64,000 nucleotides of DNA, from assembly GCA_905178155.1 (NCBI GenBank), contig CAJINV010000002.1, forward strand, positions 11,138,634-11,202,633, written 5' to 3'. Shown here in pieces: positions 27,413 through 64,000 of this stretch. This DNA comes from Amoebophrya sp. A120 (taxonomy: Eukaryota; Protista; Dinoflagellata). The position numbers and the translations under genes are program-made. The notes under the pieces are model-generated. The model ran no database searches. It had not been told where the DNA came from and worked only from the letters and a program-made list of their open reading frames with translations. The first letter of the stretch is position 1, and every line of letters begins with the position of its first letter.

Positions 27413-30400
27413 GTGGACAGCACCAACGCAGCGTCCAATGTCATCTCGACCGGCGAATCCGAAGTCAGGCAAGAACGTGCGTCCTCGGCAACTGCAAAAC
27501 GCGTTGCATCGCGGTCGTCCACTTCCGTCGCTTCGAGCCTGCTACAGGAGGAGGCCAGTCCCCTGCTACAAACTTTGACGGTCGCTGGATTGTTCAGCGA
27601 AGCACTCGGCTGCCGCGCAGATTTGGACGCTGACGATTGCAATCGCCGGACTCGAGCGCAGCTCCCGTCCGTCTGTCGTGCTTTTTCCCGGATGGACAAA
27701 AAGGTGTGCGACCAGCTCCTTCCAACAAAGGATGCGTTCTTTGGTGCGGAAGCAGGAGGTCGTCTACTTGAAGAGTTGGTGCATAAACATCGTTTCGAAA
27801 GTAATACGGATCATCTTGATCAAGTCCAACTTGTACGTGCTACTCTGTGCCGCATGCTGCCGAGTATTCCTTGCAGTTGCTGGAAATCGCTGTTGCGTCG
27901 CGAAAGAGGTGTTGCGTTTTCCTCGCGGTCGCCTTTCCGACAGCAGTTCGTGGAAGATCAGCTGACACGAGAGCAGGGTGAAGCTCTAGACGCACGAGAT
28001 CGAGATCGAGATGAAAGCTCTCACGGCCACGAGGCAGGAGCGTCCACGTCGATGCTGAGTGTTGGTACTGACTTGTTGGCACCACAGGCAGGAGCACAGC
28101 ACTCAGCTGCAAACCGGGGCAACACAATAAACGGCACCGCTTCATCTGGTTTGGGGTTCTTGCAAGAAGGGGAAAGCGGAACGGCCAAAGGAGCAGGAGG
28201 AAGCGGAAACGTTGTGGCGTCCTCTTCTAGTAGTCGCAGCGGTAGGAGCGCAGCACCGGCTCTAACGACTTTCCGTCGCTACTGTCGGTATCACGATCGA
28301 AGTGGGCGCTTCGCAGACACGTCCTGTGGCTTCTTCGTCGACCTGTTCATTGCGACCGAGAGCGAGGAAGAAAAATCATTTCGCCGAAATATTAAAAACA
28401 AAAACGAAACGATGACACCCCAATCTGTCGCAGTGCTACTGGCACACCTGAACGCGCATAGACGAAACCTGTTGCGACAGCACGAGGAGACTGGGTGCTG
28501 TGTCGGGAAAGACACCAACCACCAGCGCTATCGTGTGGCCCGACAGGTACTGGACGATTCCTGTCCACCAGGTAGGACTGCGGACGATGGAGCAGCAGAA
28601 AGTGGCCGCGGTTTTCCCGCTAGTGCCCGTAGTACCAGCAACGCAGCTGGTGTCCCACGCAGTCCGCACAACATCAACAGAGAACGACCGAGCAGGAATA
28701 CTGAAGACCGGAGCACAGAGCTAGATGTAGAAGGCGATCGCTTCTCTTCGCTTACCCTCTGCGGCACGAGGGAGGAAGCACGACAGAGGTTCTTTACAGA
28801 TATCGAAAAGAAAAATCCCCCCTCCCCATATCAAAACGGAATTTCTGATGCTGGATTTGTGTACACAAATCAGCTTTGTATTGCAGGAAGGCACTGCGGC
28901 CAGATCCCCATGCTAGGTAGGGGCGTTTGGGTCTAGTTGTTCAGCATTGCAAACGGCTCCCCTTCAGGCCCGACAGCATGACAAATCGCCACCATGCTAG
29001 GATGGAAGCTTCTGCCCTTGTCTTCTGGCAAGGCACATGTCTGTGATTTGTGACCTGAAATCAGCAACGCAAATTTTCGGAAGCATACCTTTTCCATATG
29101 GGGAGGGGGAGTTTTTCCTTTCGATAACAGATTCCTGTTGTTCGAAGTTGTTGAAGAAAGAACTCCTCGCGCTTGAACATGTTCCTGTTTCTGGAAATCT
29201 TCGAAACGTACCTCTTACGCCTTCACCTTCTCGGCTGCAACCACATCGCCGGGCTTTGCGGAGGTCGGGAGAGTCAAATGCAAATTATGGTGGTCCTCCA
29301 CCTTGCAAGAGAAAGAGGAAAGGGACAAAAAGACAAACAGTAGGGGCCGTAGATGCACATGCACTTGAGTGGGATGCTGCAGAAGCGCTCGGGCATCAAA
29401 AGCAGCATCGGAGCGACGTGAATCCTGGTGGCCCATGCAGCTCTCCCTTCCATGCAGTTAGTGTGCGCCGCGCCAACAAAGATAAAGAACATGATGAACA
29501 TGAGAAATCCAAAAACTCCTCGTACGACTTCCGGCCGTTGCAGAAGTCGCACGACATGCCAGAGAAATCATCATCCCTGCGACGTATTTTCAGTCGAAGG
29601 CCGGTGTGGGTGGCAGGAGCAAGCAGTGGCTCGAGTGATCCACCAACTGCCGTCCATATTCTAGACGGCAGTGTCAGTGCCGCCCATGACTCTAGACGAC
29701 GTGCTGCAGGTAGTTCTCTGGATTCTGGGCAGGGAGATGAAAACTTCATCTACGCGGCGGGTGCAAAAAGTACTGCAAGCGAAAAAGAGGTTCTTCGCGC
29801 GTGGTGTGTCGAATTTCTGTCCGAGTCTGCAATTTTGAAAATGGCGCCGTGTGGGCGTTCTTCTGTGGATGAAGATGAATGGATTCCCATTTTGGAAAAA
29901 ACGCTTTCTGATGGGAGCCTGGAGCGTTTGTGGCCTACCGACGCGGAAGATGTCACGTCGCCATTTTTACGTGTCGACGTGCGGGACGTCCTCGACGAGG
30001 GAGGAGAGTTTCAGGACGAGGATGGGACTTTCGCAACCGAAACCATCGAAGCAGAAGTGGAAGATGCTGTTGCTGGTGGCCCGTCCTCGCGAGCGATTAG
30101 TGATGTTGATGGCGTCCACGGGTCAGGAAGTCATTTTTTATTTGCCCTGCGAGACTCGACCTCGAGCAATCCCCTGCTTTCGTGGATTCTGGCTTTCCGT
30201 GAAATGTCAACAGAGCACTTCGTGAGACTGATGGTGCGAATCGGCGGCCTTCTCACACAGGCCTGCTGCAGAGCGCTTGACGGTGGAAGCGGTTCGAGTA
30301 GTGTAGCTATGCTTTCTCTAGAAGTACATGGCCGAGGCGATGCAGGAGGTGGAGGAGGAGTACAGCGCTCCGACGCAGTAGATGACCAGGCCGACGATAC

Positions 30401-32690
30401 TAGGCCGCATTCGCATTTCGCCCGATCCCGCGACAGAGTCGATGGAAGCGAGCATTTGCCTGCAGATGCTGGGCGCGCAGACGAAGGGATGAGCACCGAG
30501 GTGGACGAGGAAAGGGCCGATGTGGAGCTGCTCGCGGAGGTCCTTCGCAAGTTGGAACTCGGCAGCTTTATCGCGGCTCCGTGTTCGTCGCCGTTTCTCG
30601 CGCAGGAGGCCTGTCTGCTGGTGAATCGCGAGCGCGACCGGAGCGGCGCGCAGACCCCGATGGAAACTTTCGTCGCAGGCCCCATCTTTGCCCTCGACGA
30701 GCCAACTTGTTCGGTCGGCAGGAGAGGGATGCCAACATCAGCGAACGAATCCTCGTGCAAAACAACTACAAGAAGAGCAGGTAGCGGAGATAATCGAAGG
30801 CGACAAGTCCTCGCCAACATTGACCTCAACGAGAGCGACGCTTTTTTTCACTTCGATGGGAGGCGAGACGAGGACTCTACAAGCGAAAGCGCAACGACAA
30901 CGTCAGAGGATGTTTTCTCTTCCGACTCGGAATCAAGTGCCGGCGGTCTCAGTTCAGAATCCGGTGAATTCAGAAGTTCACCAGAAGAAAATGGAGCAAG
31001 AAGGAACGCGCTCACTTCCCCACAGCCGAAGCGATTGCTTCACCTAAATCGCCAGAAGCCTTGGTCGAAGGCGTTCCAGCGTCAACGAGCGGAGCAGCGC
31101 CACCAAGCTCGCTTGCGTCTAGAGACCGAGTTGAGAGTACCTCCTGCCCGGCCCCACGGCCTTGCCCGTGAGGTGGAAGCAGAATCTGAATCCGCAGACA
31201 TCGAACGAGGTCGCGGCTCTGCAAGAACACGACGTCGTCTTCGACCATCATCCTCTGTCGCGGAGCTGGACTCGTTTTTTGGCACAGTGCGGTGGCTCGA
31301 CACGCCACCCGCTTGCGGTTCGGAGACCATACACGTACTTTTGAAACAACTGAACAAGAAGAGTAGACGTAAACGGCGCACTCGGACGAACAGGAACAAA
31401 AATTATAAGGCCGCCGGCGCCTTTGGCAGCGAAAGCGAAACAGGCGAGGGAAGCGGAAGCCGCGAAACCGCATCTGCAGATTGTCCTCGTCCACACTGCA
31501 CTGCATTTGCATGCAACGCACTCGGCGGAGAAGGACAGGTCCAAGAACAACCTGAATCGGAATCCTACGAGAAACAACTGAAAAGCCTGCGCTCGCGGTT
31601 TGCGGACGCGACAACGCGCCGCACGCGCACGCGCGGGAGTTACAACACGGTTGCGATTCTACAGCAATGCTTTCCCTTCGAGTTGCGCCGAGGGAACAGG
31701 TACTGGAAAGAAGGTCAGCTGGAGATGTATAATGCCGAGCGATCAAATTGTCCTGTCGCCAACTCGAATTCCACCCCGCAACTGGACGTGGACGGACATG
31801 ATAGCGCTTGCGCTGCCAAAGTGCTACAAAAATCTATGATCGAAAACGAAAACAAAAAGAAGGAGCAACAGGAAGAAACCGATCGCAACGGATTGCGGAG
31901 AGAAAACCTGGATGAGCTCGCTCACGACTTTGACACTGTTTTGGCAAAGGCGTTGAACCACCAGCCCAGCAGCTATGTGCGATGCATGCTGCCGGGATGC
32001 TCGGCCTGCTTTTCCAGCTACGAAAAAGTGCGAAAACACATGGAGACCTGCTGCACCGACCGCCACTGCAATCCCGAGGAAATCTACCGTCTCCGCGTGG
32101 CCGACACTACCGTGAAAATGCAGGATGGTCATATAACTCCTCCTGGTTCTACTGCCAGTGTGCATCGCGGGACGGGTGGCGCTGCTGCACCTCAGGATCA
32201 AACTCAAATTCGCCCCCGGGAGAATTCCGAGACGAGGACCTCGGCGTCATTATCTTGTGCAGCTGTTACATCACCTACTCAATCTCATCCCATCTTAAAA
32301 CGCGGCAGACAGAGCAGGGAAAAGCATCAAAGTGTGCGGCGTTGGCCGCCTGTTTGTACACAGGCCTGCAGCAAGATTGCAAATGTGCTTCGGCGGCAGC
32401 ATCTTCTGGAACCTTCGTTGACCTCCGGCGCAGAAGATGTAGGCGAAGAACAGGGAGATAATTACGCTTGTCCGGTTCCCGGGTGTCTGGCGGCGTTTCC
32501 CACTCGCGACGCGACACTTTCACACTCAAAAGATTGTATCTTTTTGGCAGGACGAGGTGGAGGCCCTCCCGGATTGCCAGCAAAAGGTGTTCCTCTGCTG
32601 TTGCGCTTTGTCTTTCGGGATGACGAGGAAATCACTGAAGCTCGGAGGTCTCTGATGCTTCGTAGTTGCACCTCGGATCGGAAGATGTAA
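27413..32690 (+). CDS. Large low-complexity protein with two C2HC/C2H2-like zinc fingers; two ORFs joined by a non-canonical intron; 5' end unresolved
   Basis: Removing 331 nt (28801-29131) joins ORF 27413 to ORF 29037 as ...RFFTD-SCCSKLL...; fingers CMLPGCSACFSSYEKVRKHMETC and CPVPGCLAAFPTRDATLSHSKDC. Confidence 0.7.
28801..29126. mobile_element. Introner-like TIR element (non-canonical intron), TSD ACAGA
   Basis: ACAGA|TATCGAAAAG...CTTTCGATA|ACAGA; TIRs match at 28/31; frame restored on removal. Confidence 0.9.
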
Positions 32691-34229: not shown

Positions 34230-37200
34230 ATGGACCTCCTGGACGACCTCTATGGTCGCGCAGGTGCGACCGGTGGCGCCGCGGCTGCTGATCACGATGA
34301 CTACAACCCATATTTAGACCACAACGATAACCCCTATGCGGGGGGTGGAGCCGCAGCTGCCCTGCCACGATACGACGAGAACCCGCTTCCGGCCTCAAAT
34401 CCATACCAGCAGCAAGGAGACGCGCTCGACGCAAATTATGGCTCCACGGCGCTACCGGATTACATGACCGGTGACGGTCACGCTGGCGGACACCACCCGG
34501 GCCAGGATACAGCCCCTGGCCACCATCTGGCCAACGACAACGTGCTCGAAGCCATCCAGAGTCACCGCATCACCTCTTCTGCTTCCTCGCCCAGCGCCGC
34601 CGCCGCGGCGGCTCGGCCACCACCGGCAGCCAATTCCATAGAGGAAACGCCGATTCAGCCGCGGGCGCCGGCCGCAATCACGATTCCGTTCACATCGAAC
34701 ACGAACAGCGGTTATGGAGGTAGCTCCTCGTCAACGGCGAACCTAAACCCTAAACCCAACGCGGACTCGACGAAGTCGTCCAGCGGGCCGAGCAGCAGCA
34801 CCGCCACCAGCGGTAAAAACGTGGTGAAGCGACCGTTTTTAAAGAGAGGCGCACGAAACCCTGTGAGCACCGAGAAGGATTTTTTGTCAAAAGCCTCCAC
34901 CCAGCGCGAAGAAAAGACGCCCGGCAAGCAGCGTCCGCCCGCAGCGAACGTCACGCCCGTGCGCTCGGCGCCCAATGATGGCACGCGAGACAGCAGTCGT
35001 CGAAGCAACGCCGTCGCGTCGGATCGCGATTTATTTGAAACCGCTTCAACTTCGCGAGACGCCGACGCTGGTGGGGGAGGTCCTTCCACAACTGGAAGTG
35101 TCGGAACTAGGAACCGCTCGAGTGGTTCGAACGCAAATGCAACACTGTCGGGTAAGAAGTCAAATTGTTTGCATTGCATCGGTTCGTTGTTTGAGGACGT
35201 GGCACTAGTGATGAGATGTAAGTAGTGCCATGATCATGAAGAAGATGACTGCAATTTCAATGATGCAAACCGACAGCCCCACGAGAGACCGCAAAAACGC
35301 TAGCGAGCAAAAAGTTTTTTGCCGAGCGGTACGGAAACAACAAGAAGCCGCAGCCCGGGGGCCTGAAGCTGGATTCGGCGGAGCTAGGAGGCGAGTCGTC
35401 GTCGGCCAGCGAAGGGGGAAACCAATACTCCTCAATTCGAATCGTCGACCGTGAGGCCCATGCTTCCGAACTTCCGGATCCGGTTCAGCTCTTTTTTGGA
35501 CGACATCTTGTCCTTTGTATAGTACTTATACTTACAACGGATCATGGCATGACGTCACAGAATAGAAAGTGCGAATTCTCATAAATATGAGTGACAAGAA
35601 AATTAAGATTATGGACAAGTGCGAGCAATTACAATGTCGGCAGATAAAGCCACTGCGAGCAATTGATTGACAATCATCTAAAAGTAGCATAATACCCAAC
35701 AGGCTCAGAGTGACCTTCCTTCGGTGGAAGAGCAGGACGGCGAGTTCGATGCCGAGGAAGATCTTCGAGGCGATTTTGACGAAGATGACGAACCGCCCGT
35801 GTCCTCATTTGTGAAAAAGCACTTCTACAGCAAAAACAAACCCCCAGGGGCGCATCAAAAGCCGAGTGGCAAGGGCGCGGCGACATCTGCTTCTTCAACC
35901 TCGGGAGTATACTCGAATGCCGCGACCCTTTCTGGAGCTGCCCTGGGCGTTTCCGCGTCTTCTGTCTCACCGGGGGCAGACCACGGCTTCGAAGACCACG
36001 TAGTCAACTACGTGGTCGAGAAGAAGCAAGGCGGCGCTGCCGGTAGTGCGCTGGCGGCCGCCGCTGCGTTCGAGAATGAAGTCAACGCCTCCTCCGCCGC
36101 GGCCGACACGCAAACGCGGGAGGACTTAGCGCGTAAGCTGAAGATGCTGGACGCGCAGATCGATCGGTAACAAGAAATGACAAACCGTACATAATTATCG
36201 ATCTCGCTATGAACATCAATATGAAAGTTCCTTAAAGATGAGGCAGGAGATGATGGCTGCGACAAGCTGAGAGCTCTTATTGGGTGCATGATTTGGTAAA
36301 TTTCAGGTTCAAGCGCGAGAACGAGCAATGCAAGAAGCTGCGAATGGACCGGGAGCACGCGCTCAGGCAGGTTGAGCACGAGCGCAAGAAGCTTCGCGAA
36401 GAGGTCGAGCAAGAGTATGGCCTTCTCAGTTTTTCACATCACTCAAAAGCTACACTTTTCCGCTCGTGTAATTCATTGTCATGCATACGCAGTACCAGTA
36501 CGACCTCCAAGGGGAGCAAACTGTGAGCAAACCCAAAGCCGCGAATGACAGACGTACAGCAACAGCTGCCCAGGGGAACGCTTGCGCTTGCATCTATTAA
36601 TTTAGCAAGAGTTCGTCCAGGGAGACACAGCGCCACGATGCTCAACATTCGCTTTCACGCCTTGCTTCCTTTGCAGGATATACAAAAAAAGTTTGGCAGT
36701 ACTTGGGGCGTGTGACGGCTCGGAAGGTCATAAAGAGCGCGCTGCCATGGTGGCAGAAATTGATGAAGAACGAGAAAAGATGCGCAAGGAAAGGAATCGC
36801 ATCCATCAGGAAAGTACGCATCGCAAAAGTTGTGTCACAAGAAGAACAACACGAACACCAGCGAGCGCTGCATGTTGAGGACAAGAACTTTCCATAAGTT
36901 CTAGGGTACGCACTACACAACCAAGACCATGTTCTCTATCGGGAACGAAATCGACATATTGAATTCCGAACCATAAATGTTAATTGTAGGTGAGCATAGA
37001 GAACAAGTACAAGAATTCCAGGATCCCGCGTCTCGTGTGTACATCGTGAAATTAAAGTGAAATTCTTGCGCAACACTTTTTCACTGGATAAGGAGGGAGA
37101 AGCACCGACAGCAGGTCCAAAGCAGCAAAGCGGATGTGGCAACCAACGAGCAACTGACGAAACAATATGGAGAGTCAGTTATGAGGGTTCTTTCATCACA

Positions 37201-39260
37201 GAAGACACACCAAAGCGCTCAAAGGATTTGGAGTTCTTTAGACGAAAAAGGAAAAGAAAAAACGTGTACGCAAAGGAGCGACTGGCTTCATCTCTCTGTC
37301 TCTTTCAAGAAAACTCTGCAGCAGGCAGTGCGTATTTCTTCTGTTTTGAAAAAATCTTGCTTGCACCTCGCATATGCAACTCAAGGACCTGAAAGAGGAA
37401 ACATCGCAGAAAGAAGCAAGGTAGATGTGGTTACTCGGCAGCGACACCTCATGTGTGGCTGTTGCTTGTGATTCTCTTTTTCCGATGGAATCATGCTGCT
37501 GTATATGTATTGACAAGAGGATGATCATAGTGATTTTCAGGGAACCAGCATGACGCAGCGACAATTGGTAGTGTGCAACTTCTTTGATAAGTAAATTATT
37601 TGTCTTCTTGAAGTCAATCTTCCCTCTTAGGTTCCGCCGCACAATTGAGCGACTCCAGCGACAAAACGACGAACTTCTGAAGAAGAATTCCGAGCTTCAG
37701 GATGACTTGAGCTGGATGAATCGGCAAGCGGAAAAATACGCCGCCAACGCTGGTGGTGGAGGCAGCTCTCCTCCCGAGCGAACTGTACAGTTTGACTTGA
37801 TCATCGTAATTGAGATCTTTTCAAGATGAAAATAAACACAATTCGATTTTCGTGATACAGATATCCCAAAGCAAAGAAAGCAAAAAAGGCCTCGACAATC
37901 TATGTTCCAATCATTCAAAGGTCACGCCTGCGTCCGCTGGAGCGCCAGCAGCCGCGTCCGCGGCCACTGTAGCGCAAAACAGCCCAGCCTTGAGTTCTAC
38001 CGCTGGTCACATGCCTGTTTCGCTGGACCACCAGTCTCACCACGGAGGGACCCCGCAACTCGTGCCAAGCAGCGCGAACAGTACCCCAATGCATCACCAG
38101 CCGGCGCTCACTGCGTCGGCGCAGCACCAGCAGCACAGAACGCTGTCCGCCAACGCGCTGACCCGCCCGGCGCCGCTGCTGGGCTCCAGCGGTATTTTCC
38201 AGCCCGGGATGCGAACCAGCGGCACGAGCGGGCTGGTGCAGCACCAACCAAGCGCAGGACCCGCGAGTGGTGCGGTGGGCAGTCTCGGCCTCAGTGTTGG
38301 CTTAAACTCCTCCTCTACCGCCGCGCTTTTGAATCCCAGTGCCGGGGTCATGCAGATTGGTGGACCAGCATCTACAAAAGTGGGCGCGACCATGACAAGT
38401 TCCTCGGCGGCCACGTCGGGCTCTTTTCACATGCTGAACACCCGCGCAAATCATGCAGTAGCGACGGCTTCTTCAAACTTCGCTCCGCTTCCGTCAAACG
38501 GGACGACGCCTTCTGCATCGAAGACACTGAGCGCGGGCCTGAAGCCAACGGCGGCGGGAGCAAATGCCGGGGAGATGGGCATAAGTCAGGACCTAGCTAC
38601 AGAAATCCTGAAATCGCTACCGGTAATCGACGATAACGTGAAAGATCCCCACGAAATACCCACCGAAAAGATATCTCCAGACGGCCGCGTTGAGCGTATG
38701 TTCCGAGACGGGCGGCGGGAAATTCAGTATTGTTAGTTTCTGATGAAAATGAAATTTGAAATTATTTTTGGGATTCAGATAGGCATAGGAGAAGGAGGAC
38801 CACAAAATTTACATCTTCTGCTTTGGTTTACGCTGATGTCAGTTGTTTTTTTTTGTGAATCATGTTCATGTTCATGATCATGTCCCGCCTGCGCACGAGC
38901 ACGACACCGCTGTGAGGGCCATCCATTTGAAGAAATATACACAGGTTCACGAACGGGCTGAAGAAGGTTTTGTGGCCCGACGCGCGGTGCACTGTTCTAT
39001 TCACGAACGGGGACACGAAGCATTGTCTCGCAGACGGTACCGTGATTTACCGGTACTCCGAGACCGCCGCAACGCAAACCACCTTTTCCACCGGCATCGA
39101 AGTCTTTCAATTCGCCTCCGGGCAAATCGAGAGGCACTTTCCCACCGGGGAGAAAGAAATCAAGTTCGCAAACGGCACGACGAAAAAAATATACGCCGAC
39201 CTGCGCGAAGAAATCCGCTTCCCCGACGGAGTGGTGAAACACGTTGCGCCGAAGAAGTAG
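34230..39260 (+). CDS. CENPJ: SAS-4 / CENPJ (CPAP) centriole protein, about 10 exons
   Basis: N-terminal KRPFLKRG motif (34827-34850), central coiled coil (IDRFKRENE...KEARFRRTIERL) and C-terminal TCP10/G-box repeats (FTNGDTK...DGTVIYRY...QTTFSTGIEVFQFASGQIERHFPTGEKEIKFANGT). Exons approx 34230-35151, 35277-35482, 35703-36166, 36307-36415, 36738-36814, 37096-37165, 37380-37420, 37631-37784, 37921-38726, 38945-39260. Confidence 0.88.
36416..36732. mobile_element. Introner-like TIR element in SAS-4, TSD AAGAG
   Basis: AAGAG|TATGGCCTTC...GAAGGTCATA|AAGAG; removing 322 nt gives EQE-RAAMVAE; adjacent GT/AG pairs (321 or 323 nt) are out of frame. Confidence 0.85.
36815..37090. mobile_element. Introner-like TIR element in SAS-4, degenerate TSD GAAAG/AGGAG
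   Basis: Left end TACGCATCGCAAAAGTTGTGTCACAAGAA vs right end (reverse complement) TATCCAGTGAAAAAGTGTTGCGCAAGAA; removing 281 nt gives HQE-REKHRQQ. Confidence 0.72.
37166..37374. mobile_element. Introner-like TIR element in SAS-4, degenerate TSD AACAA/TGCAA
   Basis: TATGGAGAG...CTCGCATA with inverted TTTCA..ACAGAAGA block; removing 214 nt gives LTKQ-LKDLKEETSQKEAR. Confidence 0.75.
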
Positions 39261-40799
39261 TAGAATGGGAGCCTTTGCCTTTCTTCTCTGGCTGGTGCAG
39301 GCAAGTCCTCATTTTCTTCGACATCTGTTGCAGGTCAGCAGTTGTTTCCGGTGCCGCACAACCGCGACGGCGAATTGTGGTCTGCACAACTTCGACACTA
39401 TTCCGATTGCTCCTGCTACAGATGCTGATATAGCTACTCTGCGCAGTCGGAAGTATTTTGCTCACCCTTAGAAAATCAATACTCCACTCGAATCCCATCT
39501 GCGATTTACTTCAGGGTTTTTGTGCGGGTGAATTTGAATTTAATTTTGTGTGCATGTGCTATAATCTACATCTATTTTTGGCACAACGGAACGTGGACAT
39601 GATTCCGTCGCTCTTTTTTGTAAAAAGGGAAGTTCATGTACATGTTGCTGATCATGCAGACTAGATGTAGACGATGAAATTGATCATGAACTTTGGCGTT
39701 GCGCCTTGGTGCAGTCGCCCTCGCAGCCCAGTGTTTCAATACTCCCGCTCCCCGTGTTTCAACACAGTGGGTCAAAGTACCCCGGGATGAAAGGTCCATG
39801 CAAGGGAGGTTTTGGTATAAGCATGGAATTGGAAACCAGAATTTCATGATGTACCAGAAAACGTAAACGACTGATTTAAATATGCGTTCGAAAGCGATTT
39901 GTGGATTTATTTTTGCAATGTAAAGCTTGAAATAGCATTACAGCATGTGATGAAAAAGGACAGAAATTTATTATCTATGCTTCGATTACGATGCATTGTG
40001 CATCAGCATCTGCTTTGATACGCTGCGCTTCAGTGCCGCATTGTGGAAAAGCGCGGTATTACACGGTGACGCCATCCTTCTGTTTTCGGCATGTATCCAG
40101 ATGCAGGCGCTCCCTCCACTCCTACCGCTACCCATGCTAGTATTTCGTACTAACCACAAAGAAATGAACGTGACGTGGCTTCTGCAGGACCCTACTATCT
40201 ATGTCTATCACAGTATGGAGAGTGATCTTTCGAGCGCGAGAGCCGATACTGATAGATAGATACTTCAATAACGTGTGAGATGTTGTATGTGGTGCAGAGA
40301 AATCTAGTATGTGGTGAAGTACTTTTTGACCTTTTTCTTGAACCGGCCTGCCAGAATTAAAGATTTGCTTCGTAGTTTTCCATTTGCTCCTTCCTGTGAT
40401 GGTACTTTGTTTCCCGGGTAAAGCATGGCTTTACAAAGTAGTTGTGAGAGAATTACGAAGTGGGCTCCTTGTTCGTCGCAGCCAGAAGCAAGTCGAAGAC
40501 CACGGAAGTGGGCTCCAGGTCCTCCATCTCAATTATGAGGTGATTGTCATTCGTTGCAGCTACACGAACACGACCACTGGAACCGCCAATAAATAAATGT
40601 ATGCCCGGGCAGTAGCAGGCTAGCGAGCCTGTGAGTCTAGGCTGAGGCTGGACGGGCGATATTTTATACATGTCCGAGCCTCGCCCTTTTCCGGTAGCCA
40701 GGACAAGATGTTTGTGAGGGTGAACCTCTTCCCGGTCTGGGTTGAAGTTTATTTCCTTTCTCTCTTATCCTCAGGGAGTAACGCCCCTGCCGATGGTAG

Positions 40800-41265
40800 T
40801 AAGTCTGGTCCATCCGCCTCAGGAAAGTGTCTTTTATCCGCTTGTCGGAAAGTCTGGTCCATCCGCCTCAGGAAAGTTTTTTCATCCGCTTGTCGGAAAG
40901 TCTGGTCCATCCGCCTCAGGAAAGTGTTTTTATCCGCTTGTCGGAAAGTCTGGTCTCATCCGCTTGGCGGAAAGTTTGGCGATCCGATTGGCGGAAAGTT
41001 TGGTCTCATCCGCTTGTCGGAAAGTTTGGTCTCATCCGCTTTGCGGAGAGTTTGGTTATCCGCTTGTCGGAAAGTCTGGTCAAATCCGCTTTGCGGGAAG
41101 TTTGGTTTATCCGCTTGGCGGAAAGTTTGGTCGCATCCGCATGTCGGAAAGTCTGGTCTCATTCCGCTTGGCGGAAAGTTTGATCTCATCCGCTCGGCGG
41201 AAAGTTTAGCCCAATCCGCTTTGCGGACAGTTTTGGGCATCTCTGGTTTATCCGTTGTGCGGACA
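40800..41265. repeat. Tandem minisatellite, ~24-26-bp unit ATCCGCTTG(T/G)CGGAAAGT(C/T)TGGT with hairpin core
   Basis: Roughly 19 adjacent imperfect copies of TCCGC...CGGAAAGT. Confidence 0.9.
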
Positions 41266-41859
41266 ATGTTGGCAGCCCTGATTGTATTCTCGTTGACGTT
41301 GGCGATAGCAGCGAGAGTACGGAATCATGCGGTCTCGCCTTGCTTTGGGAAGGAGGGTCGTTTGGCACTGGCGGTTCGAACCCGTTACCCTTGCGAACTT
41401 TTTCCGTCCCAAGCCAAGGCCCTTGGCTTTCTTTGGTGGTTTGTCCTTCGATCCTCTGATCCCATTGCAACGCGAGGCCGCAAGGCTATCGGTTTTCGTC
41501 CGCTCGAAGCTTTCCACTTCGGGTACATGCCACTGGTCGGTCCGTCGTCATCGCTACGCCTTCGTCTATGGGGCGCACCGGTTTCCCAAATTCATCGTCT
41601 GGCCGCAGGCGTCGCGCCGGGTTCTTTGGGCTGCTTCGGCGTACCGGCCTCCGCCGGTGGGGTAGGTGCTTCCAGGGCGCCTCCTCGTGCGACGCAGTGG
41701 GAGATGCTCCCATCGAGCGATCATCCATAGGGTGATCCTTCCGCGGTGACTGAATAAAATAAGCATGGTCTGACAGCACGGTTTGTGAGCAAAACCAAAA
41801 GCAAGAGCCAAACTCGTGATCGTGATCGATACTGAGGAAAAAAAACGACAAATCTTTCC

Positions 41860-44800
41860 ATGGGATCATCCAAGGTGACGAAGCATCCGCTTGAGGCGGC
41901 CGCCAGCCTGCAGGATTTGAAGAAGAAGAGCAAGTTGCTCAGTATCCGGTTTCAGGCCCCAGAGCTCGATCTAGATGTCGGCGTTGCGGTGCGCTTAGGA
42001 ACCTCGACGGGCAGCAGCCTGGGGAGTAGCTGTAGCTCCTCGTCGGAGAATTTTACCGCTGTCCCCTGCATGGCGGCAGATCTGATAACTAATGCCACGA
42101 ATACACTACACGAGTATTTCCCCAGTCACTCTTCTGCCCACGGGGAGGACCGAGTGACCGTGTACGCGAAAAGGCCGCACCGGAGCGAGCTGCGGGTCCG
42201 GGCGAGGGGCAGCTTTCAAGACGGGGGGAGCTCCAGCTCCACTTTTCCCGCTACGAGGTTGTACGACGAGGCAGGCGACGAAGAGGAGGAGGACGGGGCA
42301 GGCGCAGAAACCTATGCCCGGTCCGTCCGGCACTTGATTTCAAAACTTGAAGAGTCCCGGAAAGTTGCCGCTCTCAAAGACGCGTAATACAAACATTGAA
42401 GTGCATTCATTTTCCGTTGTGATGATCATTTGGCTCATCATCGTTCTTGTTGTGCGTCAGATCCTATGTAGAATCGGCTGATATGATTATAAACGCGGAA
42501 AGTCAAACACAAAATGAAAAAGAAACACAGTTGTGCCGTATCGCGAAATATCAAATTCTAGGTATGTGGAGGTCGTGGCCGAGAAGTACACCGAGGCAGT
42601 GAAAAAGTTGACCAATTTTCGCCAAGAAGCGCTAAAAGAAATCGCAAATTTACGCAACCAGCTCGCGATGGCCCGGAAAGATGGGACGACGTACCAGCAC
42701 AGAAGCGTAACCTTTCTTGACGACGCCGAGATCGAAAAGTATCGGTTTCTAGTTTTTGTCTACTTGATGTTACGTTTTTCTATTTGATTGTCGTACTGCA
42801 GAGATCGTGCTAGCCTCAGCCGCAGACCAAGTGTCACTGTGTATCGTTGCTTGTATTGAGGTTGAACTTCTGCTCCGGTTGGCGTCTGGCTCGCGTTAAC
42901 AGTACCAAGTGCATAACGTACTTCTGCATCGTTCTACTCTTTTCGCTTGCCGCTTATTTGTTGCAACAAAAATCGATCAGTAAGTACGGAGTCCCGGGCT
43001 GGCAGACCATTGTTGACCAAGCAATCGCACGCTGGGAGGGCGAGCAGTCTATGATACCGAAAAAAGGTGGTTGCACAAAAAACGCGTTTCATTTATTTTT
43101 GTTTGAAAGTAGGGCTGGTGAACCTAAGCAACCGAGGACCTCTACTACGCAGCAAGAGTTAAACTTGTAGTTTTTGTAGATCGACGGTATTAATCAATAG
43201 AAATGTAGCACAAGGGATTGTTACTGCTTGTGATTGTAGTGGTCAAGTATGAAATACCAATGCAAATGCGTACTGAACAGTACTAGAGTAAGTTGGAGTG
43301 GCAAGTCGAATTGATCGAAAGGCTACATCACCATTAATATGTCGCGCGACGTTACTAGTACTAGTTTGCACCCACCGACCGTTTTATTGCATACTGGTAA
43401 AGGAGTTTGCGTTCTCGAAGCTGTTGAAACCACAGACGGAAAACGAGAAGAAACTCCAATTGGTCACCAGCACAACAACTGGCACGGGACCCGCGCCCCC
43501 TCCCGCAAGAATTAGCAATGACAAGGACTTTCACGTGCATCGCAATCCGAATATGATTCTGGATTCCGCCACAGAAGTGCAAAAGGTGCAGGAAATGCAG
43601 CAGGGAGAGTACTTCGAGTACCACAAAATCGTGTCAAAGCCCGAGCCGGAGCCGCCGCTCCCGCTGTTTTTGCCGTCGCCCAAGCGCAACCGCGCAAACG
43701 CGATCTGCGACCTGGAATCGCTGGAAAAGCAGCGGAGGCATTCGGTGCACGCCGCGGATCTGCCGAAGCCGAGCGCTTTCGGGGACATGCGCGTCGAAGA
43801 GACGGAAGGAGACGTAGAAAAGAAGAAAACGGAAACAACGCGGACGAGCGGACTCAACCTAGTGTCGTCGACGACAACGACGTATCAGCGTTCTTTTTTT
43901 TATTTGTGACTTGTTTTCATTTTTTTGTCACTGACTCATGCTCATCACTGCTCTTCCTTTGTTTTTGAGATACGGGCGGCTGAAGAGCCTCAAGCGATCC
44001 AACAGATTGAGTTAATGAATGAAGAAGCCTGAGCGAGATATGTTAATGTTTGATGAACCTAATTTGAAAACTGAATTACTTGAAACATCAGGCAGCCATC
44101 CACGCGCGCGACGAGTGGGGCGCGCACTCCTGTCAGGCACACCACGTTTCTTATGGCGAGAAAAATTATACAATTTAGCATTGCTTTTTCTCCATCGCGA
44201 GCCGCCACTCTTGCTTCGATATGCATTTGGATTTGCAACACCCTCGTCTTGTCAGATCCTTGTCTCCAGCTGGTCATTTATTTCACTGCAAGTAGTTCTT
44301 GTAAATTAAAATTTGAGACGAGTGGCATCAAAAACCGTAGCAGAGATCGCATGCTGAAAATTACGGTGATACTGTTTACCGGTGGGAGCCCGCCGCGGTC
44401 GCCAGCTTCAAGTGTCGCCTCTGTCCCGCTGTTCGAACGGATGGTAAAGAAAATGATCGTAGCTATAGTGAGGTTATCCAGTGCAAAAGTATCGTACTCG
44501 TATAAATCCTCCCCGATTTTGATCCATGATAAAACTTAGAAGCTGGTGGGAAGTTGTTGAGAAGTAGGTGGATAAGTGGGTGAGAAGTCCGCGGCGAAGT
44601 TGGTTTGGAAGCCGGTGAGAGGTGGCCGGGTGTGTTGGCGTCGCCATCGCCTCGGCCGAGTGGCGTGGCACGTCACTCCACCGCCGCGAGTTCTACCGCC
44701 TTCGCTGCCTGCAGCTGCAGCTGCAAGGGCTGGAAGGAGAGTTTGCGCTGCAGATAAATAGACAGACGCCCAGTGTCATTGTTTCCATTCATCTGCGGCG

Positions 44801-46858
44801 CAGTTCGACCAGTTGGCATCACGGCACCATGCGCGAAGACTTAGAGAAGATGTATCAAAAGGCGCATCTGTGATGGCTGCACGCAAAGACGCAAGCACCA
44901 CAGACGAAATAAAGCTGCGCGCGACGTTGTGGAGCCGGGGCTGGACGCCGCAGGAGCTAACTAATCCATTAATGAGCTAGCTAATTGCTTAGTTAACTCA
45001 TTAACCTCGCCAGCGCCCTTGCTTTTCTTTCGGATAAAAACGCAGCTTCGCGTGACACCTACACAAAGTAAAGCCTTTTTTTCTCCGCAGCTTTTCAACA
45101 AGTTTTCCTCAAGTTCTCAACAACTTCTCAACAACTTCTCGGACAAGATATAAATCAAATTCTTTAACTTCGCAGACGCCCTTGCTTTTCTTGTGGTAAA
45201 AAACGCAAGTTTGCGTGTATCCTACACAGTTTGCGGCGTTTTTTGCTCTGCAGCTTCTCAACAACTTCTCAACAACTTCTCGACCAACATATCTAAGATA
45301 TTTGGCGAGAAGTTGCTGAGAAGTTGTCGTGAAATTCATTTCCTAGAGAATGCTCTGCTTTTCCCAAAAGACCATTCTTTAAGAGTTGTCTTTTGGGAAA
45401 AGCTAGAGAAGGCTTTGGGCTTCTAAGAGTCTTAGAAGCCCAAAGCCTTTCTGCAAAAGCAGGCTTTGGAGCTCCCACAGCGCTCACATTTGCGCGGAGG
45501 CGCGACCAAAGTAAGTATGCACAGCCAAACTGATTCGCGACTGCGCACGCGGCCACGAATCGAGATCCGGCAAACTCGTGAGACACCAGCCAAAGGCTGG
45601 TAGAGAATTTGGCGCGCCTAAAGTAAGCTCAAATCCGTGCCAACTCCCCGAACAAACCCACCCGCCGACTCCCGCCAACTTCTCAACAGCTGGGAAGTTG
45701 GTGAAAAGATTGGGGAGAAGATGGTGAGAAGTTGGCGGGAAGTTGGTTGGAAGTACGTGAGAAGTTGCCGAGATGTTTTATGCATAACAGAGCGAGATTT
45801 ATACGAGTGCGATACTTTTGCACAGGATAGAGGTTCTCGTTCTCTCTTCGACCTCTCAAAAATAAAAGTCAAACAAGTTCTGTTGAACAATTTCAATCTC
45901 TTCTTCACTGCTTGGCCATCTTGCTGTAGCAGCTCTGCATGATCGTCACTCGTAATCATACTGGTTGTACGTACAAGGATTCGCCTTCTAGCAGTTTGAT
46001 TTATCATTATTTGGTTCCTGGACGTGGTCGCGCTGATGTCATGTGCGAGCCTCTCCTACACACAGTCGAGTCCACCAGCCTTATGCGAGGAACTGGAGGT
46101 CAAGGGTCTTACTCATACTGCAACACCAATATCACAGTCAACCACTGGGAGCTTCGAAGACGGGCTTTCCTCGTCCTCCGATGCGCGGTTTTCGAACCAG
46201 CCAGGATCCTGCACCAGTACGGTATCGACGTGGTCTTTCTCGACTAATGAAACCAGAGCCTCGCCGGTAGAGCAGCACTTGATCACATTTGATACCGGGA
46301 AAGCGCTCGGAAACGCAGCGATAAATCGCGGACGTACCAAACAGAAATTGCAGAACCTGCAGGTGGCCGCTTCTAGGACCTGGAAAACTAGAGAGCCACG
46401 CTTCGCGGATGCTAGTATAAATGTTGCTTTGATACTAGAAATACTAAATACAGACTCAAACGGGCTCGCTGGCCGCCGTATCGATCTTCAGCTGTACTCT
46501 TTTGCGACTCAGCATGACTGCCTACGGTCACTCGCACGCGACCCCCGGCGCACTTCGTTCGTTAACATTTCTCGAAATTCAAATCGATACGAGAGCCGTT
46601 CTGTCAGCAGTATCATCACACTCGAACAAGCCCAAGCGGCCCCCATCCCCAATGATCATGGTTCGTTCTCGCCCAACTACAGACCGACTGGCACAGGAAT
46701 TTCAGAAGAACGTGTCCCAATTCGAGAACGAGCCGCCGTTGCCGGTAAGGAAGAAAAAACAGAAGCCGGAGGGGACCGCCTTTTACCCAGCGGTATTGGG
46801 CCACCTGAAGCCAACCGGAAGGAGAAAATCCCTCCCCCTGCGAAGCCTGAACAAATAA
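41860..46858 (+). CDS. Hypothetical multi-exon gene with short coiled coil; 3' exon structure unresolved
   Basis: Exon-like ORFs at 41860-42383, 42562-42738, ~42981-43049, ~43399-43881, ~44380-44442 (PLFERM then GTAAAG) and ~46590-46858; first intron GT-AG. Confidence 0.45.
43050..43393. mobile_element. Degenerate introner-like TIR element
   Basis: TATG...CATA ends with inverted GGTGG(T/G)TGCA block; flanks CAGTC/CTGGT; removing 349 nt restores frame into KEFAFSKLLKP. Confidence 0.5.
44475..45829. mobile_element. 1.35-kb non-autonomous TIR transposon, 5-bp TSD GAGGT, probably intronic
   Basis: GAGGT|TATCCAGTGCAAAAGTATCGTACTCGTATAAATC ... GATTTATACGAGTGCGATACTTTTGCACAGGATA|GAGGT (32/34 TIR match); many internal GAGAAGTT/AACTTCTC motifs; internal direct repeat ~45001 vs ~45164. 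Confidence 0.92.
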
Positions 46859-48399
46859 CGAGACGATAGCGACGGAAAAGGAAATACTTGGTAAAATACA
46901 AACCGTTGGATAATATCAGCATTTCCATTTCGATTTCTTTCGCAACTAGCCTCAGGCATAATCACACCTGGTGGAGGCAACCCGTAAGTATCAATCAGAC
47001 GCTCTGCATATGCATATCATTGCGGTGCAAGTTCTTCTTTCCTGCTTGAAAGCGAAAGGTGATGCGGTACTAGCTCGTCTGAATGTATGATTATTTCTCG
47101 GTCAAGAATTTGTTCTCCTTCTCATTGAGTCTTCTAAAGCCAATACGAGCGTGTTGTCACCGAACTCGGAAAACGATCGCGTACAGACAACAATTTCTTT
47201 GCCGAGGGCACTGCAAAAAGTTTCGAGTAAATAGTGAATTTGCCGCCCCGGATGAAAGACATCTGAGCAACTTTGTAGAAGCCGTGTACTATGTCTCCGC
47301 TTCAACTTCGGTGAAGCGTTGGCGTCTACATCGCATTCTACGCCGATTTAAAAACCTTTGAAATGTAACACGCTCCCTCTTGTACGTATAGTCGAAAAAC
47401 GAATGTATAATTATGCTTCATTACCTACTGCTACTTGAAGAACTTGCCATCTTTTACTCCTAGCCTCTGTCTCTCGTTTTCGCCATCAACCATATCATCA
47501 ACATCGCAGCAATTCTAGTTCATTTGTTGGCTCTTGCACCCCCACTGCTACAAAATATGGGTGGTGAGCAGAGCAGTGCTATGCAAAAGCAAATGCATCG
47601 TAGCATCACAAAAAATACCAAATTTTGCCTTCGCCATTGCCACAAAGAAAAGCAAGAAAAACATTCGCGACGTAAACGCTGATTGAGAACGATACGAGGA
47701 CATCATTTTCTTGTGAACGATTGAGCCCGAAGATACTGATAGCTCGCCGATGAAGTTTCCAAAACGATAAAGTTAGAGACGCAAAAGGAAAAGCCGACGC
47801 GGAAAAAAAAAGCAGGAAAGCCAGATTCTCGCCAGCCACAGTTTGCGTCTAGGCGCTCTTGGTTGTCAGATGAGGTCGGGGGCGGTTCCTAAAGTAGTGT
47901 TACTTTACAACAGCCACATCACATTCATAGGCTCCATGCGGGCTTGCTCAGGCGGTGCAGCCATTACACCCACTTTTTGTTTTTAGACTCGCCCTCGCAT
48001 CGGCATTAGTCGCGTCCTGCCTTAGCCTTGTGCATACTGCTTCACTTTGATTCGGATTTTGTCAGTCCCCCGCGGCGTTTGTAGTGCACTGACTCGCTGA
48101 CTCGTCGCTCATCGTGATTTGATATTATCCAGCTCCAGGTAACTCTCTGCTACTCGCTATTCCTATTCCTCATCGCCATCGTCGTCGCAAAGAATCGCAT
48201 CGCAGTATCATCGATGGCCTTGTGCTCTTCCATTCGAATTCGTGCTATGAAAGGTCCTCACCTCTTTCCGATTGTAAGTGTCGCACAGAAGTTACATTTT
48301 TTGGTTTTTGTGGAAGAGGTAGGAGGTCGGTCCTGTCGGTATGGATTTATTGCATTTGTTGTGTTGTGTTTGTGAACATCAAGAGGAAGAGCCGAAAGG

Positions 48400-55353: not shown

Positions 55354-56513
55354 GCGCACATAACGGGGGTGCTTTGCGAACTCGAGTCTTGAAATGTCAG
55401 GTGTTTCACGAATGGTTCTTTATGCTCCCAGATTAGGGTTGCAAGCACGGAGTTACGTTTTGGGTTGCGATAGATTGCTGATCTTGCCATTGCCGCGCCG
55501 TGAAAATGAATTGCAAGTCGTCTGATTTGGTGACACAAAGTAGAATGAACCGACAATGCACAAATAGCGGGAACAAGACGTCGTGGACTTCTACGTTCGT
55601 ATGAGGCTGACCTTTCCGCCGGCAATGTCTCCCTCTGTGATGCGCACGTTGTGGTCCTCTTTGCAAGATTTCGATTGTTACGTATTTCTGAAGATGCCCT
55701 AGATTTTCAACTAACTCTATTTAGATGAAGACAACTTCAACTACTTCCTTTGAAAGCCGCCGCACACTAGATTCCTCTGCCTGCAGACAGTTGGCCCGCC
55801 GATTTATTGGCATGCGAGAGGTCGTTCTTTTGGTTCAATGGTTGTGCAACTTCACTTCTTGGAGCCAAATTTCTCAACTTCACAAACCAACTTGCAATGT
55901 ACCTTTTACGAAACACGAAGGAAAAAAAGTAGATATTATGTGAGAGCAGGACGCAGTGGAAGTGGTAGCTCCATAACCATACCGCCGCTCCCGCGAGTGC
56001 CTGCTATTCCTGTCCTGTCATCTTTATTGTGACCGTGTTCTTCGTCCAGAGAAATGAGAGTCCCAACACGTGTAGGTCGAAGTGCTTGAGAAGCAAGTGT
56101 GGTAGTAGAAGTCACTTTCCGTGTGGGCATCAGCTGCTGTAGTTCATCGCAGACATGAATGGTGTGAAGGAAGATTGAGCGGGAGCTGCACCACTATCTC
56201 TTCGATCTACTTTATCCGATTCCAATAGCGAGTAGATTCAGTCTTTCCTGCTGGTATACATCTCTGTCAGTCTCGGTCCGTCTGTCGTCGCCACTACTTC
56301 TTCCACGACTCGAATATGTAAGGATGGCCCGCCTGGAAAACCGTTCGCTTTCTCGCGGGCCCTACGTACCGTTTCGCTTTCTCGCGGGAACCCCGTCGTG
56401 ACGCGGGACCTCAGCCTTCGCGCGGCCTGCTTCGTGGGGTTCCAACGTCGAGAGCGGCCGCAAGTGCTTCCCAAGAACAGGCACCCAGCTGTAGAACGGT
56501 ACCAAGGGTTGCA

Positions 56514-62369: not shown

Positions 62370-64000
62370 ATGGCTCCCGCTGTTTCCACCATGCTGTCCC
62401 GCAGTAAGCGAGGCTTGTTTTCTGCAGCGTTGCTCGCCGGAGCGACCACAGCTGCTCCGGTCAAGAAAATGACGGCGGTGATCAAAATTCTGGAGGACAT
62501 GCGGGACGAGATCGAACACGACCAAGCCGAGGACGAAAAATCGTATAGAATTTATTGTCCTCGTGGTCCCGTCGGTCATGTGCGGAGCTCCTTCCTGGTG
62601 CAAAAACAAAAAGTTCAAGTTGTACAAAACTCTGAAGCCGAATTCGATTGATTTTGTTGCTGACACGCAGCAAATACATAGTTGAATAATTATGGCTTCT
62701 CGAGCGCCACATGAAACAAACGACCTAGGTACGCCAAGATGGAGTGTTGGTGCAAGAAGAACGACATGACCTTGTCGGAAGCCCAGGCCGCGGCGCAGGC
62801 GGAGTTGGAGCGGTTGCGCGCGAGCGTGACGGCCAACACGGCCGAGGCCGCGGCGCTGGCGACCGAGTTGGAGGGAATGGAAAAGGAGCTGAAGCAGGCG
62901 CGCGAGTCGCTGGACGAGCTGATCACGATGAACACGAAGCAGGTCGAGGAATATCCAGGAAAAAACACCCATCCACATCCAATTTGTGACGCAAAACACA
63001 TATCGATATCAAATCACTTCGTGTGTTTGTAATGCAAAAAATGGATGTGGATTGGTTTTTTTCTGTGCATAAGGAAGATGGGAAGACCGTAGCCGAGTAC
63101 ACGGAGTCCATTACCGCCCTCGCCAACGCCCTCACCGTTATCCACAGTAAATTGCCCGTACACGTACCAATGCAGTCCCAGTCTCTGCATGACAAAACTT
63201 GCCTTCAATCCTAGTCTAGCATGACAAGTTGGACACTGCAAGTTAGCGAAATTTGTCATGCATTTTGTACATGTGCGGGAAATTTACATTGCATATCCGT
63301 TCTGAACAAGCACCAGCCGGGGCTGACGCAGAAAAAGGTGGTCTTGGAGCTGCGCAAGCACGTGTCGGCGCACAGCGACATGCTGGACGCGCTGCTCGAG
63401 CCCAGCCAGCGCCGGGAGCTGAACGCCTTCCTGCAACAGGACACCCGGCAGAACCAGAAGCAGAACCCGACCAGCCCGGCCTACTCCAGCCAGTCCGGGC
63501 AGATTTTCGGGATCCTCGCCCAGATGAAGGAGGAATTCGAGTCTGATTTGGCCACCCTGAAGGAGAAGGTGGCCTCAGACAAGGTCACCTACAACAAGCT
63601 GAAAAAATCCAAGGAGGAGGGCATCGCCGACCTGGAGAAGGGCATCACCTCGAAAACCAGCCGCAAGGCGGACGCCAAGCAGGAGGCGGCCGACGCCAAG
63701 CAGCAGATCGCGGACATCGAAAAGACGATGGCAGCCGATCTGGAATTTCTCGCGGAGGTGAAAAAAGTGTGTCCGAAATCCTCCGAAGAGTTTGCGAAGC
63801 GCACGGAGGACCGACACATGGAGTCGCAGGCTATCGACAAGGCGGTCGAGATTCTGGGCAGCGACGAGAACCGCGACTTGTTCGACAAAACCGTGGAAAA
63901 GGCGCCGGCGCTCGCCTTTCTGCAGACGGGCATGATGAAAAATTCCAAGGAGGTGGCGAGCAAAGTGGTGCAGAATCTGGTATTTCCATGTATGAACAAA
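62370..64000 (+). CDS. Dinoflagellate-type coiled-coil protein with N-terminal hydrophobic leader (partial, runs off the window)
   Basis: Motifs VIKILEDMRDEIEHDQAEDEKSYAKMECWCKKN, ALTVLNKH, YSSQSGQIFGILAQMKEEFESDL and AFLQ. GT-AG intron 62543-62728 plus two TIR-type introns. Confidence 0.8.
62952..63071. mobile_element. Introner-like TIR element, TSD AGGAA
   Basis: AGGAA|TATCCAGGAAAAAACACCCATCCACATCCA ... TGGATGTGGATTGGTTTTTTTCTGTGCATA|AGGAA; removing 125 nt gives KQVEE-DGKTVAEY; can be written as GA-AG intron 62949-63073. Confidence 0.85.
63139..63295. mobile_element. Introner-like TIR element, TSD ACCGT/TCCGT
   Basis: TATCCACAGTAAATTGCCCGTACACGTAC ... GTACATGTGCGGGAAATTTACATTGCATA; contains an in-frame stop; removing 162 nt gives ALTV-LNKH. 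Confidence 0.88.

Follow-up and report, generated by a model that had tools for sequence, protein, structure and literature searches.

The 64,000-nucleotide stretch of the Amoebophrya sp. A120 genome analysed here (the window) contains, at positions 44475-45829, a 1,355-bp non-coding DNA transposon with terminal inverted repeats (TIRs), which lies in a canonical intron and probably got there through a cut-and-paste enzyme that is provided from another place in the genome. The element is a non-autonomous, fairly young-looking member of a published class of A120 elements, characterised by TA...TA termini and target-site duplications (TSDs) of 5 bp. The type of family, the TA termini, and the length of the TSD are already in print, and the element adds one member to this class, not a new kind of system. 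It is built as follows:

44443..46136 (+): host canonical GT..AG intron of 1694 nt that holds the whole element (joint 44442>46137, RNA-like runs X3-X6)
44470..44474 (no strand): left copy of the 5-bp TSD GAGGT, identical to 45830-45834
44475..44508 (+): left TIR, 34 nt, starting TATCCAGTGCAAAAGT, from the inverted-repeat pair; its entire 34 nt are common with the consensus ends of a family of ~150-bp elements
44545..44588 (+): left subterminal array, 3.9 copies of the 11-bp unit GGTGAGAAGTG, from the repeat search; fits a role as enzyme-binding sites only as a conjecture
44995..45284 (no strand): internal duplication, 2 x 127 nt, 75% alike, from the repeat search
45091-45140 and 45254-45281: internal 11-bp arrays in the opposite orientation, within the duplication 44995..45284
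45357..45449 (no strand): two internal palindromes (45357-45403 and 45409-45449) with sub-threshold microRNA-like hairpin matches in Rfam
45694..45767 (+): right subterminal array, 6.6 copies of the 11-bp unit GAAGTTGGTGA, oriented like the left array, from the repeat search
45796..45829 (-): right TIR, 34 nt, from the inverted-repeat pair; 14 contigs of the DNA run X1 run on from it into unlike flanks
45830..45834 (no strand): right copy of the TSD GAGGT

The two arms of the TIR are complementary at 32 of 34 positions (94%), with 1287 nt between them, the outer ends read TATCC...GGATA, and both flanks carry a perfect GAGGT, all of which can be read from the sequence as a preliminary description had done. 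Both arms have the form TATCC(A/T)GTGCAAAA, and the termini are TATCCAGTGCAAAA. The preliminary description took the element to be free-standing. This part has to be revised, because the element lies wholly within the intron 44443-46136, at a distance of 28 nt from the 5' splice site; the intron minus the element and minus one copy of the TSD would measure 334 nt. The evidence on splicing comes from the contigs of four runs (X3-X6), which we took as RNA since they skip introns that are present in X1; there is no RNA label on record. X1 itself looks like DNA from the organism of the window, its unique depth being ~24-33. The joint 44442>46137 is present in the contigs of all four RNA-like runs, and a contig with eight exons (41699-47881) keeps a single open frame through every joint, which identifies the host as an expressed coding gene on the plus strand. 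In X4, one contig (depth 10.1) skips from 45280 to 45513 within the element, a hint of a transcribed relative or of a variant that lacks 232 nt.

The element is non-autonomous. Its longest stop-free frame has 111 aa, and its 8 longest frames match no Pfam family at E-values up to 0.01. An Rfam search of the element gives nothing at the gathering score, and only sub-threshold microRNA-like hairpins. As in other non-autonomous TIR transposons, there is no internal transposase gene. Since no open reading frame (ORF) is longer than 111 aa and Pfam gives no match, the element cannot be the parent that encodes the enzyme. This excludes an autonomous parent transposon with a transposase or integrase of its own, and with it the "parent family" of the preliminary description: no counterpart of its interior occurs in the 608 kb of loci that bear short relatives, with which the element has only the TIRs in common. 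A blastn search of the window finds no further copy outside the element itself.

A TIR family in short copies and in introns

The short relatives came to light in a scan for exact matches to the TIR 20-mer in public metagenome contigs, with at least 151 stretches, all of one accession series. We fetched 149 of these loci (608 kb), and the counts below cover this set. In these loci, 183 distinct copies are short (median 150 bp); they are miniature inverted-repeat transposable elements (MITEs), whose consensus has the whole 34-nt TIR in common with the element and nothing beyond it. The 5-bp flanks of the copies match at 5/5 positions in 133 cases, at 4/5 in 38, at 3/5 in 6, at 2/5 in 4, and at 1/5 in 2. 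The copies sit at unrelated sites and their TSDs differ in sequence, with a fixed length of 5 bp, as in a non-autonomous TIR family; a target-site motif sought in the 133 perfect TSDs was not found. Copies can be dense, with several per 10 kb in some loci. In two loci they occur in stretches that are 91% alike over 1.9 kb (L001:1239-3069 and L015:1-1857), each with a MITE copy and the same TSD TCTTC; a duplication of the locus or two haplotypes could account for this, the insertion being inherited in common.

The DNA run carries the same signal of a repeated family. The bins of X1 that hold the TIRs reach summed depths of 7350 and 15198, compared with ~24-33 in unique sequence. Contigs of X1 join the left TIR to the right one (44495-44507 > 45797-45810), and 14 of them leave position 45829 into unlike flanks. 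Where contigs of X1 and of the RNA-like runs depart from the window, after 44502-44507 and ahead of 45797-45802, their loose ends look like the interior of the MITE, and we therefore took the public contigs to come from the same or a closely related organism.

Some of the MITE copies interrupt coding sequence. One case is a 149-bp copy in locus L002 (TSD TCTGG) that stands between two ORFs for an FtsH-like AAA protease on the minus strand: in the alignment to chain 2r62_A, the upstream ORF ends and the downstream one starts at residues 33/34, and the removal of the element plus 5 nt leaves one frame that runs through the junction without a gap. To extend this to the other copies, we recorded which of the three phases is open across the junction after removal of the MITE, with a binomial p-value for the result. 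With flanks of 150 nt (165 testable copies), only the phase of element plus 5 is open in 25 cases, and only the first or only the second wrong phase in 10 and 8 (p = 7e-4), while more than one phase is open in 66 and none in 56. With flanks of 210 nt (112 testable copies), the corresponding numbers are 17, 6 and 6 (p = 0.0045), with several phases open in 15 and none in 68. The excess of the correct phase, together with the protease locus, shows that a fraction of the MITE copies lies in coding sequence and needs to be removed with exactly one copy of the TSD. The orientation of the copies relative to the strand of the host ORF shows no bias (12 same, 9 opposite).

The window has further elements with TAT...ATA ends, some of which coincide with non-canonical introns. 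Five are backed by joints in the RNA-like contigs, and three are predicted from sequence and reading frame:

36411..36732 (+): non-canonical intron of 322 nt, element 36416-36732 (317 nt) plus 5 nt, perfect TSD AAGAG; joint 36410>36733, where 5 letters fit either side
36813..37093 (+): non-canonical intron of a SAS-4-like gene, 281 nt, element 36815-37090 (276 nt) plus 5 nt; joint 36812>37094, in X3 and X5
37163..37376 (+): non-canonical intron of 214 nt, element 37166-37374 (209 nt) plus 5 nt; joint 37162>37377
43049..43397 (+): non-canonical intron of the host gene, 349 nt, element 43050-43393 (344 nt) with 1 nt added on its left and 4 nt on its right; joint 43048>43398, in X3-X6
44151..44375 (+): non-canonical intron of the host gene, 225 nt, element 44152-44371 (220 nt) plus 5 nt; joint 44150>44376, in X3-X6
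28801..29126 (+): predicted introner of 326 nt, TIR 13/14, perfect TSD ACAGA, of another high-copy TAT...ATA family
62952..63071 (+): predicted introner of 120 nt, TSD AGGAA, starting TATCCA; removal of element plus 5 keeps the frame open
63139..63295 (+): predicted introner of 157 nt, TSD 4/5, starting TATCCA; removal of element plus 5 keeps the frame open

All five RNA-backed introns of the window consist of a TAT...ATA element plus exactly 5 nt. The 5-nt repeat is perfect in one of them (AAGAG) and decayed in the other four, where the arithmetic still holds. The joint 43048>43398 is unambiguous (0 letters fit either side) and takes 1 nt on the left of the element and 4 nt on its right; the remaining joints are compatible with this register, in a small sample of five. 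The predicted introner at 28801-29126 sits between two long ORFs, in a bin with an X1 depth of 21398 (compared with ~24-33 in unique sequence), and has a 74% relative in locus L062. The removal of element plus 5 opens one frame over 480 nt, and the removal of +4 or +6 does not.

A link between these introns and the 1,355-bp element is seen at the SAS-4-like gene, where the ORF downstream of the intron has a weak Tcp10_C match. The 16-mer TATCCAGTGCAAAAGT has four matches in the window at up to 3 mismatches, compared with a mean of 0.42 in shuffled sequences, and none of 100 shuffles reaches four. Two of the matches are the arms of the element, one lies at 22041 (3 mismatches), and the fourth (minus strand, 37075-37090, 1 mismatch) is the exact 3' end of the SAS-4-like intron element. 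The preliminary description had reported this 15/16 match at the right TIR; the left end of the same intron element matches at 12/16. Its further remark that the elements at 62952 and 63139 start TATCCA also agrees with the sequence. A generic scan for TAT...ATA pairs at 11/14 is noisy: among its 23 pairs, 4 have a TSD of at least 4/5, compared with 3 of 214 AAA-ended control pairs. Two more inverted-repeat units of the window restore no open frame upon removal: a 159-bp unit at 10377-10535, with a perfect 12-nt TIR starting GTGACA and the TSD CCTGC, and a 485-bp unit at 11593-12077, with a perfect 14-nt TAT-type TIR and no TSD.

Overall, the data support a single TIR/TSD class that comprises the element and the introners, as the preliminary description had proposed from the termini: the 34-nt TIR recurs in the MITEs, copies interrupt coding sequence, and all five RNA-backed introns are element plus 5. 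The shared TIR, the 5-bp TSDs, the interrupted FtsH-like gene, and the rule of element plus 5 make a shared mobilising enzyme a reasonable inference.

These features agree with what has been published on A120. The part of Farhat et al. (2021, PMC7789003) considered here reports that >60% of the introns of A120 are non-canonical, with an average of ~240 nt, and describes introner elements with inverted repeats of 8-20 nt and direct repeats of 3-5 nt at their borders. The motif of these inverted repeats (TAT, 7 variable nt, then at least 3 A) is matched exactly by both arms of the element, which also has the paired inverted repeats and the direct repeat, although its 34-nt arms exceed the published 8-20 nt, and which, like the introners in that account, has no internal transposase gene. 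The RNA-backed non-canonical introns of the window (214-349 nt) compare with the published average of ~240 nt. Unlike the introners of that account, the element has 1,355 bp and is a passenger within a canonical GT-AG intron, not an intron itself. The direct repeats described there vary in length and position, whereas the five RNA-backed cases here are all + 5 nt in one register (PMC7789003).

The family table of Gozashti et al. (2025, PMC12130899) lists 58 introner families for A120, many of them as "TIR DNA / Unknown". One of these, fam17, has a 149-bp consensus under this label and by its description resembles in size the 148-150-bp MITE family. Another, fam38, is labelled "Ginger, 5-bp TSD, TA/TA Termini" and has ORFs with Copia/Gypsy homology flanked by TIRs. 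The element has the same TSD length and TA/TA termini, a likeness at the level of the table's description, but none of the ORFs.

Comparable elements occur in other lineages, as outlined in PMC11282704. Euglenid nonconventional introns and the MITE-derived introns of Fritillaria are TIR/TSD elements that are removed at non-canonical borders so that the message is restored; they belong to other lineages with other termini and TSD lengths, and the 1,355-bp element, unlike them, would leave the message with its host intron (PMC11282704). The introners of Micromonas pusilla and Aureococcus anophagefferens are miniature TIR transposons that create introns upon insertion, with canonical splice sites that come partly from a 3-nt TSD, whereas the family described here has non-canonical borders and no orientation bias (PMC11282704).

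The putative mobilising enzyme

An insertion by an enzyme supplied in trans has to be weighed against several observations. A Pfam search of 194 ORFs (121 + 73) of at least 200 aa, from ~512 kb of non-redundant MITE-adjacent loci, found no transposase or integrase domain, and neither did a search of 12 long ORFs of the window. Farhat et al. found no DNA transposase in A120 and reasoned against a spread driven by transposases (PMC7789003). There is no empty-site joint among the joints listed (15/34). The 1.35-kb unit was seen in this one copy, its interior has no relative in the 608 kb, and the X1 contigs of this interior have a depth of 45-58, ~2x that of unique sequence, which falls short of proof that the whole unit has moved more than once. 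Most MITE copies give no verdict in the phase test (at 150-nt flanks, no phase is open in 56/165 and several are in 66/165). The assignment of the public contigs to the organism of the window is itself probable rather than certain, as it follows from shared MITE sequence. Finally, the subterminal 11-bp arrays, which might be binding sites of the enzyme, are direct and not inverted, an unusual layout for such sites.

The 194 MITE-adjacent ORFs match solely host-type domains in Pfam, and no repeats above 2 kb are common among the fetched loci. Pairing the ends by identical TSDs gave one longer candidate, L061:476-2934 (2459 bp, perfect TSD TTCCT), whose TIRs (AAAAGTGTCTGG... type) are those of a sister subfamily. 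Its 415-aa ORF has no relative in Pfam or in the protein atlas. This could be an element that carries a gene or a chance pairing, for which we estimate a probability of roughly one in five over all lonely ends. In the window, a single open frame of 3,310 codons (14879-24811) has no Pfam domain, and the long ORFs at 29001-32690 and 56322-59624 have no Pfam match; a run of 769 N at 521-1289 is an assembly gap. The repeated region 40452-41779 was considered as a possible transposable element gene and rejected, because it is a tandem repeat of ~40 bp. The array of ~40-bp units at 40800-41230 has a DNA depth of 230-400, compared with ~27 in unique sequence, and a spurious open frame of 368 aa.

Elements of the Transib type make 5-bp TSDs and have CAC... 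termini. The length of the TSD thus fits, and the type was rejected because the termini are TAT and not CAC. The hAT elements make TSDs of 8 bp, with 5 bp in the subgroup hAT5. An 8-bp hAT element does not agree with the 5-bp TSD that is found at 4/5 or better in 171/183 MITE copies.

A retroviral-integrase-like transposase of the Ginger type is a conceivable mobilising enzyme, though a doubtful one. TSDs of 5 bp are typical of integrase-type enzymes, and the fam38 label, with its Copia/Gypsy-homologous ORFs between TIRs, points in the same direction (PMC12130899); the integrase-type guess of the preliminary description agrees with this label and is plausible. According to Bao, Kapitonov and Jurka (2010, PMC2836005), Ginger1 and Ginger2/Tdd are TIR elements with short TSDs, mostly of 4 bp; two members of the Ginger2 group, TDD-4 and TDD-5, make TSDs of 5 bp, which is also the length found here. 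Yet the Ginger termini given there are TGTNR, whereas those of the element are TATCC, and the Ginger target preferences are CCGG or an RTATAY context, whereas the MITE TSDs show no target motif (PMC2836005). No integrase domain was seen in any ORF searched: neither a Gypsy-integrase-like DDE domain nor an H2C2 zinc finger, which define Ginger, was found in the element or in the 194 MITE-adjacent ORFs. Transib forms another 5-bp class. The table that names fam38 ascribes the 5-bp TSDs of Polarella to PIF-Harbinger, "possibly NuwaI" (PMC12130899).

A more speculative proposal, to which we give a low probability, is that a DDE/integrase-like transposase of an undefined superfamily moves the TA...TA/5-bp elements, and that the RNA machinery which removes the MITE copies takes its measure at the foot of the TIR, so that its cuts, 1 nt ahead of the element and 4 nt past it, reflect the 5-nt stagger made in the DNA upon insertion. 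A full-text search of the literature found no later paper that ties A120-type elements to a defined transposase. If the proposal is true, the 1.35-kb element would be the best available handle on the binding sites of the enzyme.

Alternative readings of the element

The element could itself be an introner, cut out together with 5 nt by a hairpin-dependent non-canonical splicing before or alongside the host intron, which we consider unlikely. Its termini and 5-bp repeat are those of the RNA-backed non-canonical introns, and its ends form the strongest terminal duplex among nine tested (-52.5 kcal/mol, compared with a mean of -12.6 after shuffling). The terminal 40-nt duplexes of three elements that are spliced (36815-37090, 43050-43393, and 44152-44371) have -13.5 to -15.3 kcal/mol, within the range of shuffled sequences, so that strong pairing of the ends may not be needed for the removal of these introners. 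The preliminary description had asked whether the element is excised from the pre-mRNA on its own. Among the listed joints of X3-X6, none falls on its borders, and the element is spanned only by the canonical joint 44442>46137, in four runs; rare excision is compatible with this, since contigs drop rare forms. Own excision would also leave the mature mRNA unmarked, as the host intron is going anyway. By these contigs, the element differs from A120 introners in the property that defines these as non-canonical introns.

An internally deleted remnant of an autonomous parent, from which the MITEs derived and whose binding sites survive as the 11-bp arrays, is less probable still. The 34-nt TIR in common with the MITE consensus, the arrays of 11-bp units that adjoin both ends, and a length far above that of the 150-bp MITEs are in its favour. 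However, there is no trace of coding sequence in the element, the MITEs share the TIR alone with it, and no longer relative was found in the 608 kb.

A composite, in which two separate MITE insertions bracket 1.3 kb of ordinary intron DNA, is conceivable where MITEs are as dense as several per 10 kb in some loci, but can practically be dismissed, because GAGGT stands on both outer flanks (1 in 1024 by chance for unrelated insertions), the inner partner TIRs are absent (the 16-mer has two matches only in 44400-45900), and the interior has an architecture of its own, with 11-bp arrays and duplications.

Proposed insertion and passive removal, and intron annotation

Under cut-and-paste insertion of a non-autonomous element, one trans-acting enzyme would recognise the shared terminal ~16-34 nt and would cut the target with a 5-bp stagger. 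The same enzyme would mobilise both the MITE introners and the larger 1,355-bp element. The copy in the host gene would be harmless, because the spliceosome would remove it passively, carrying it away along with the host intron.

Genomes of the Amoebophrya type contain tens of thousands of non-canonical, transposon-like introns. This locus shows one TIR family in two forms, as ~150-bp copies that interrupt coding sequence and as a larger non-coding passenger of an intron. Two such forms with a clean 5-bp TSD are what classical cut-and-paste insertion at the DNA level predicts. The arithmetic of element plus 5 nt provides a simple rule for the annotation of non-canonical introns and constrains the models of their excision.

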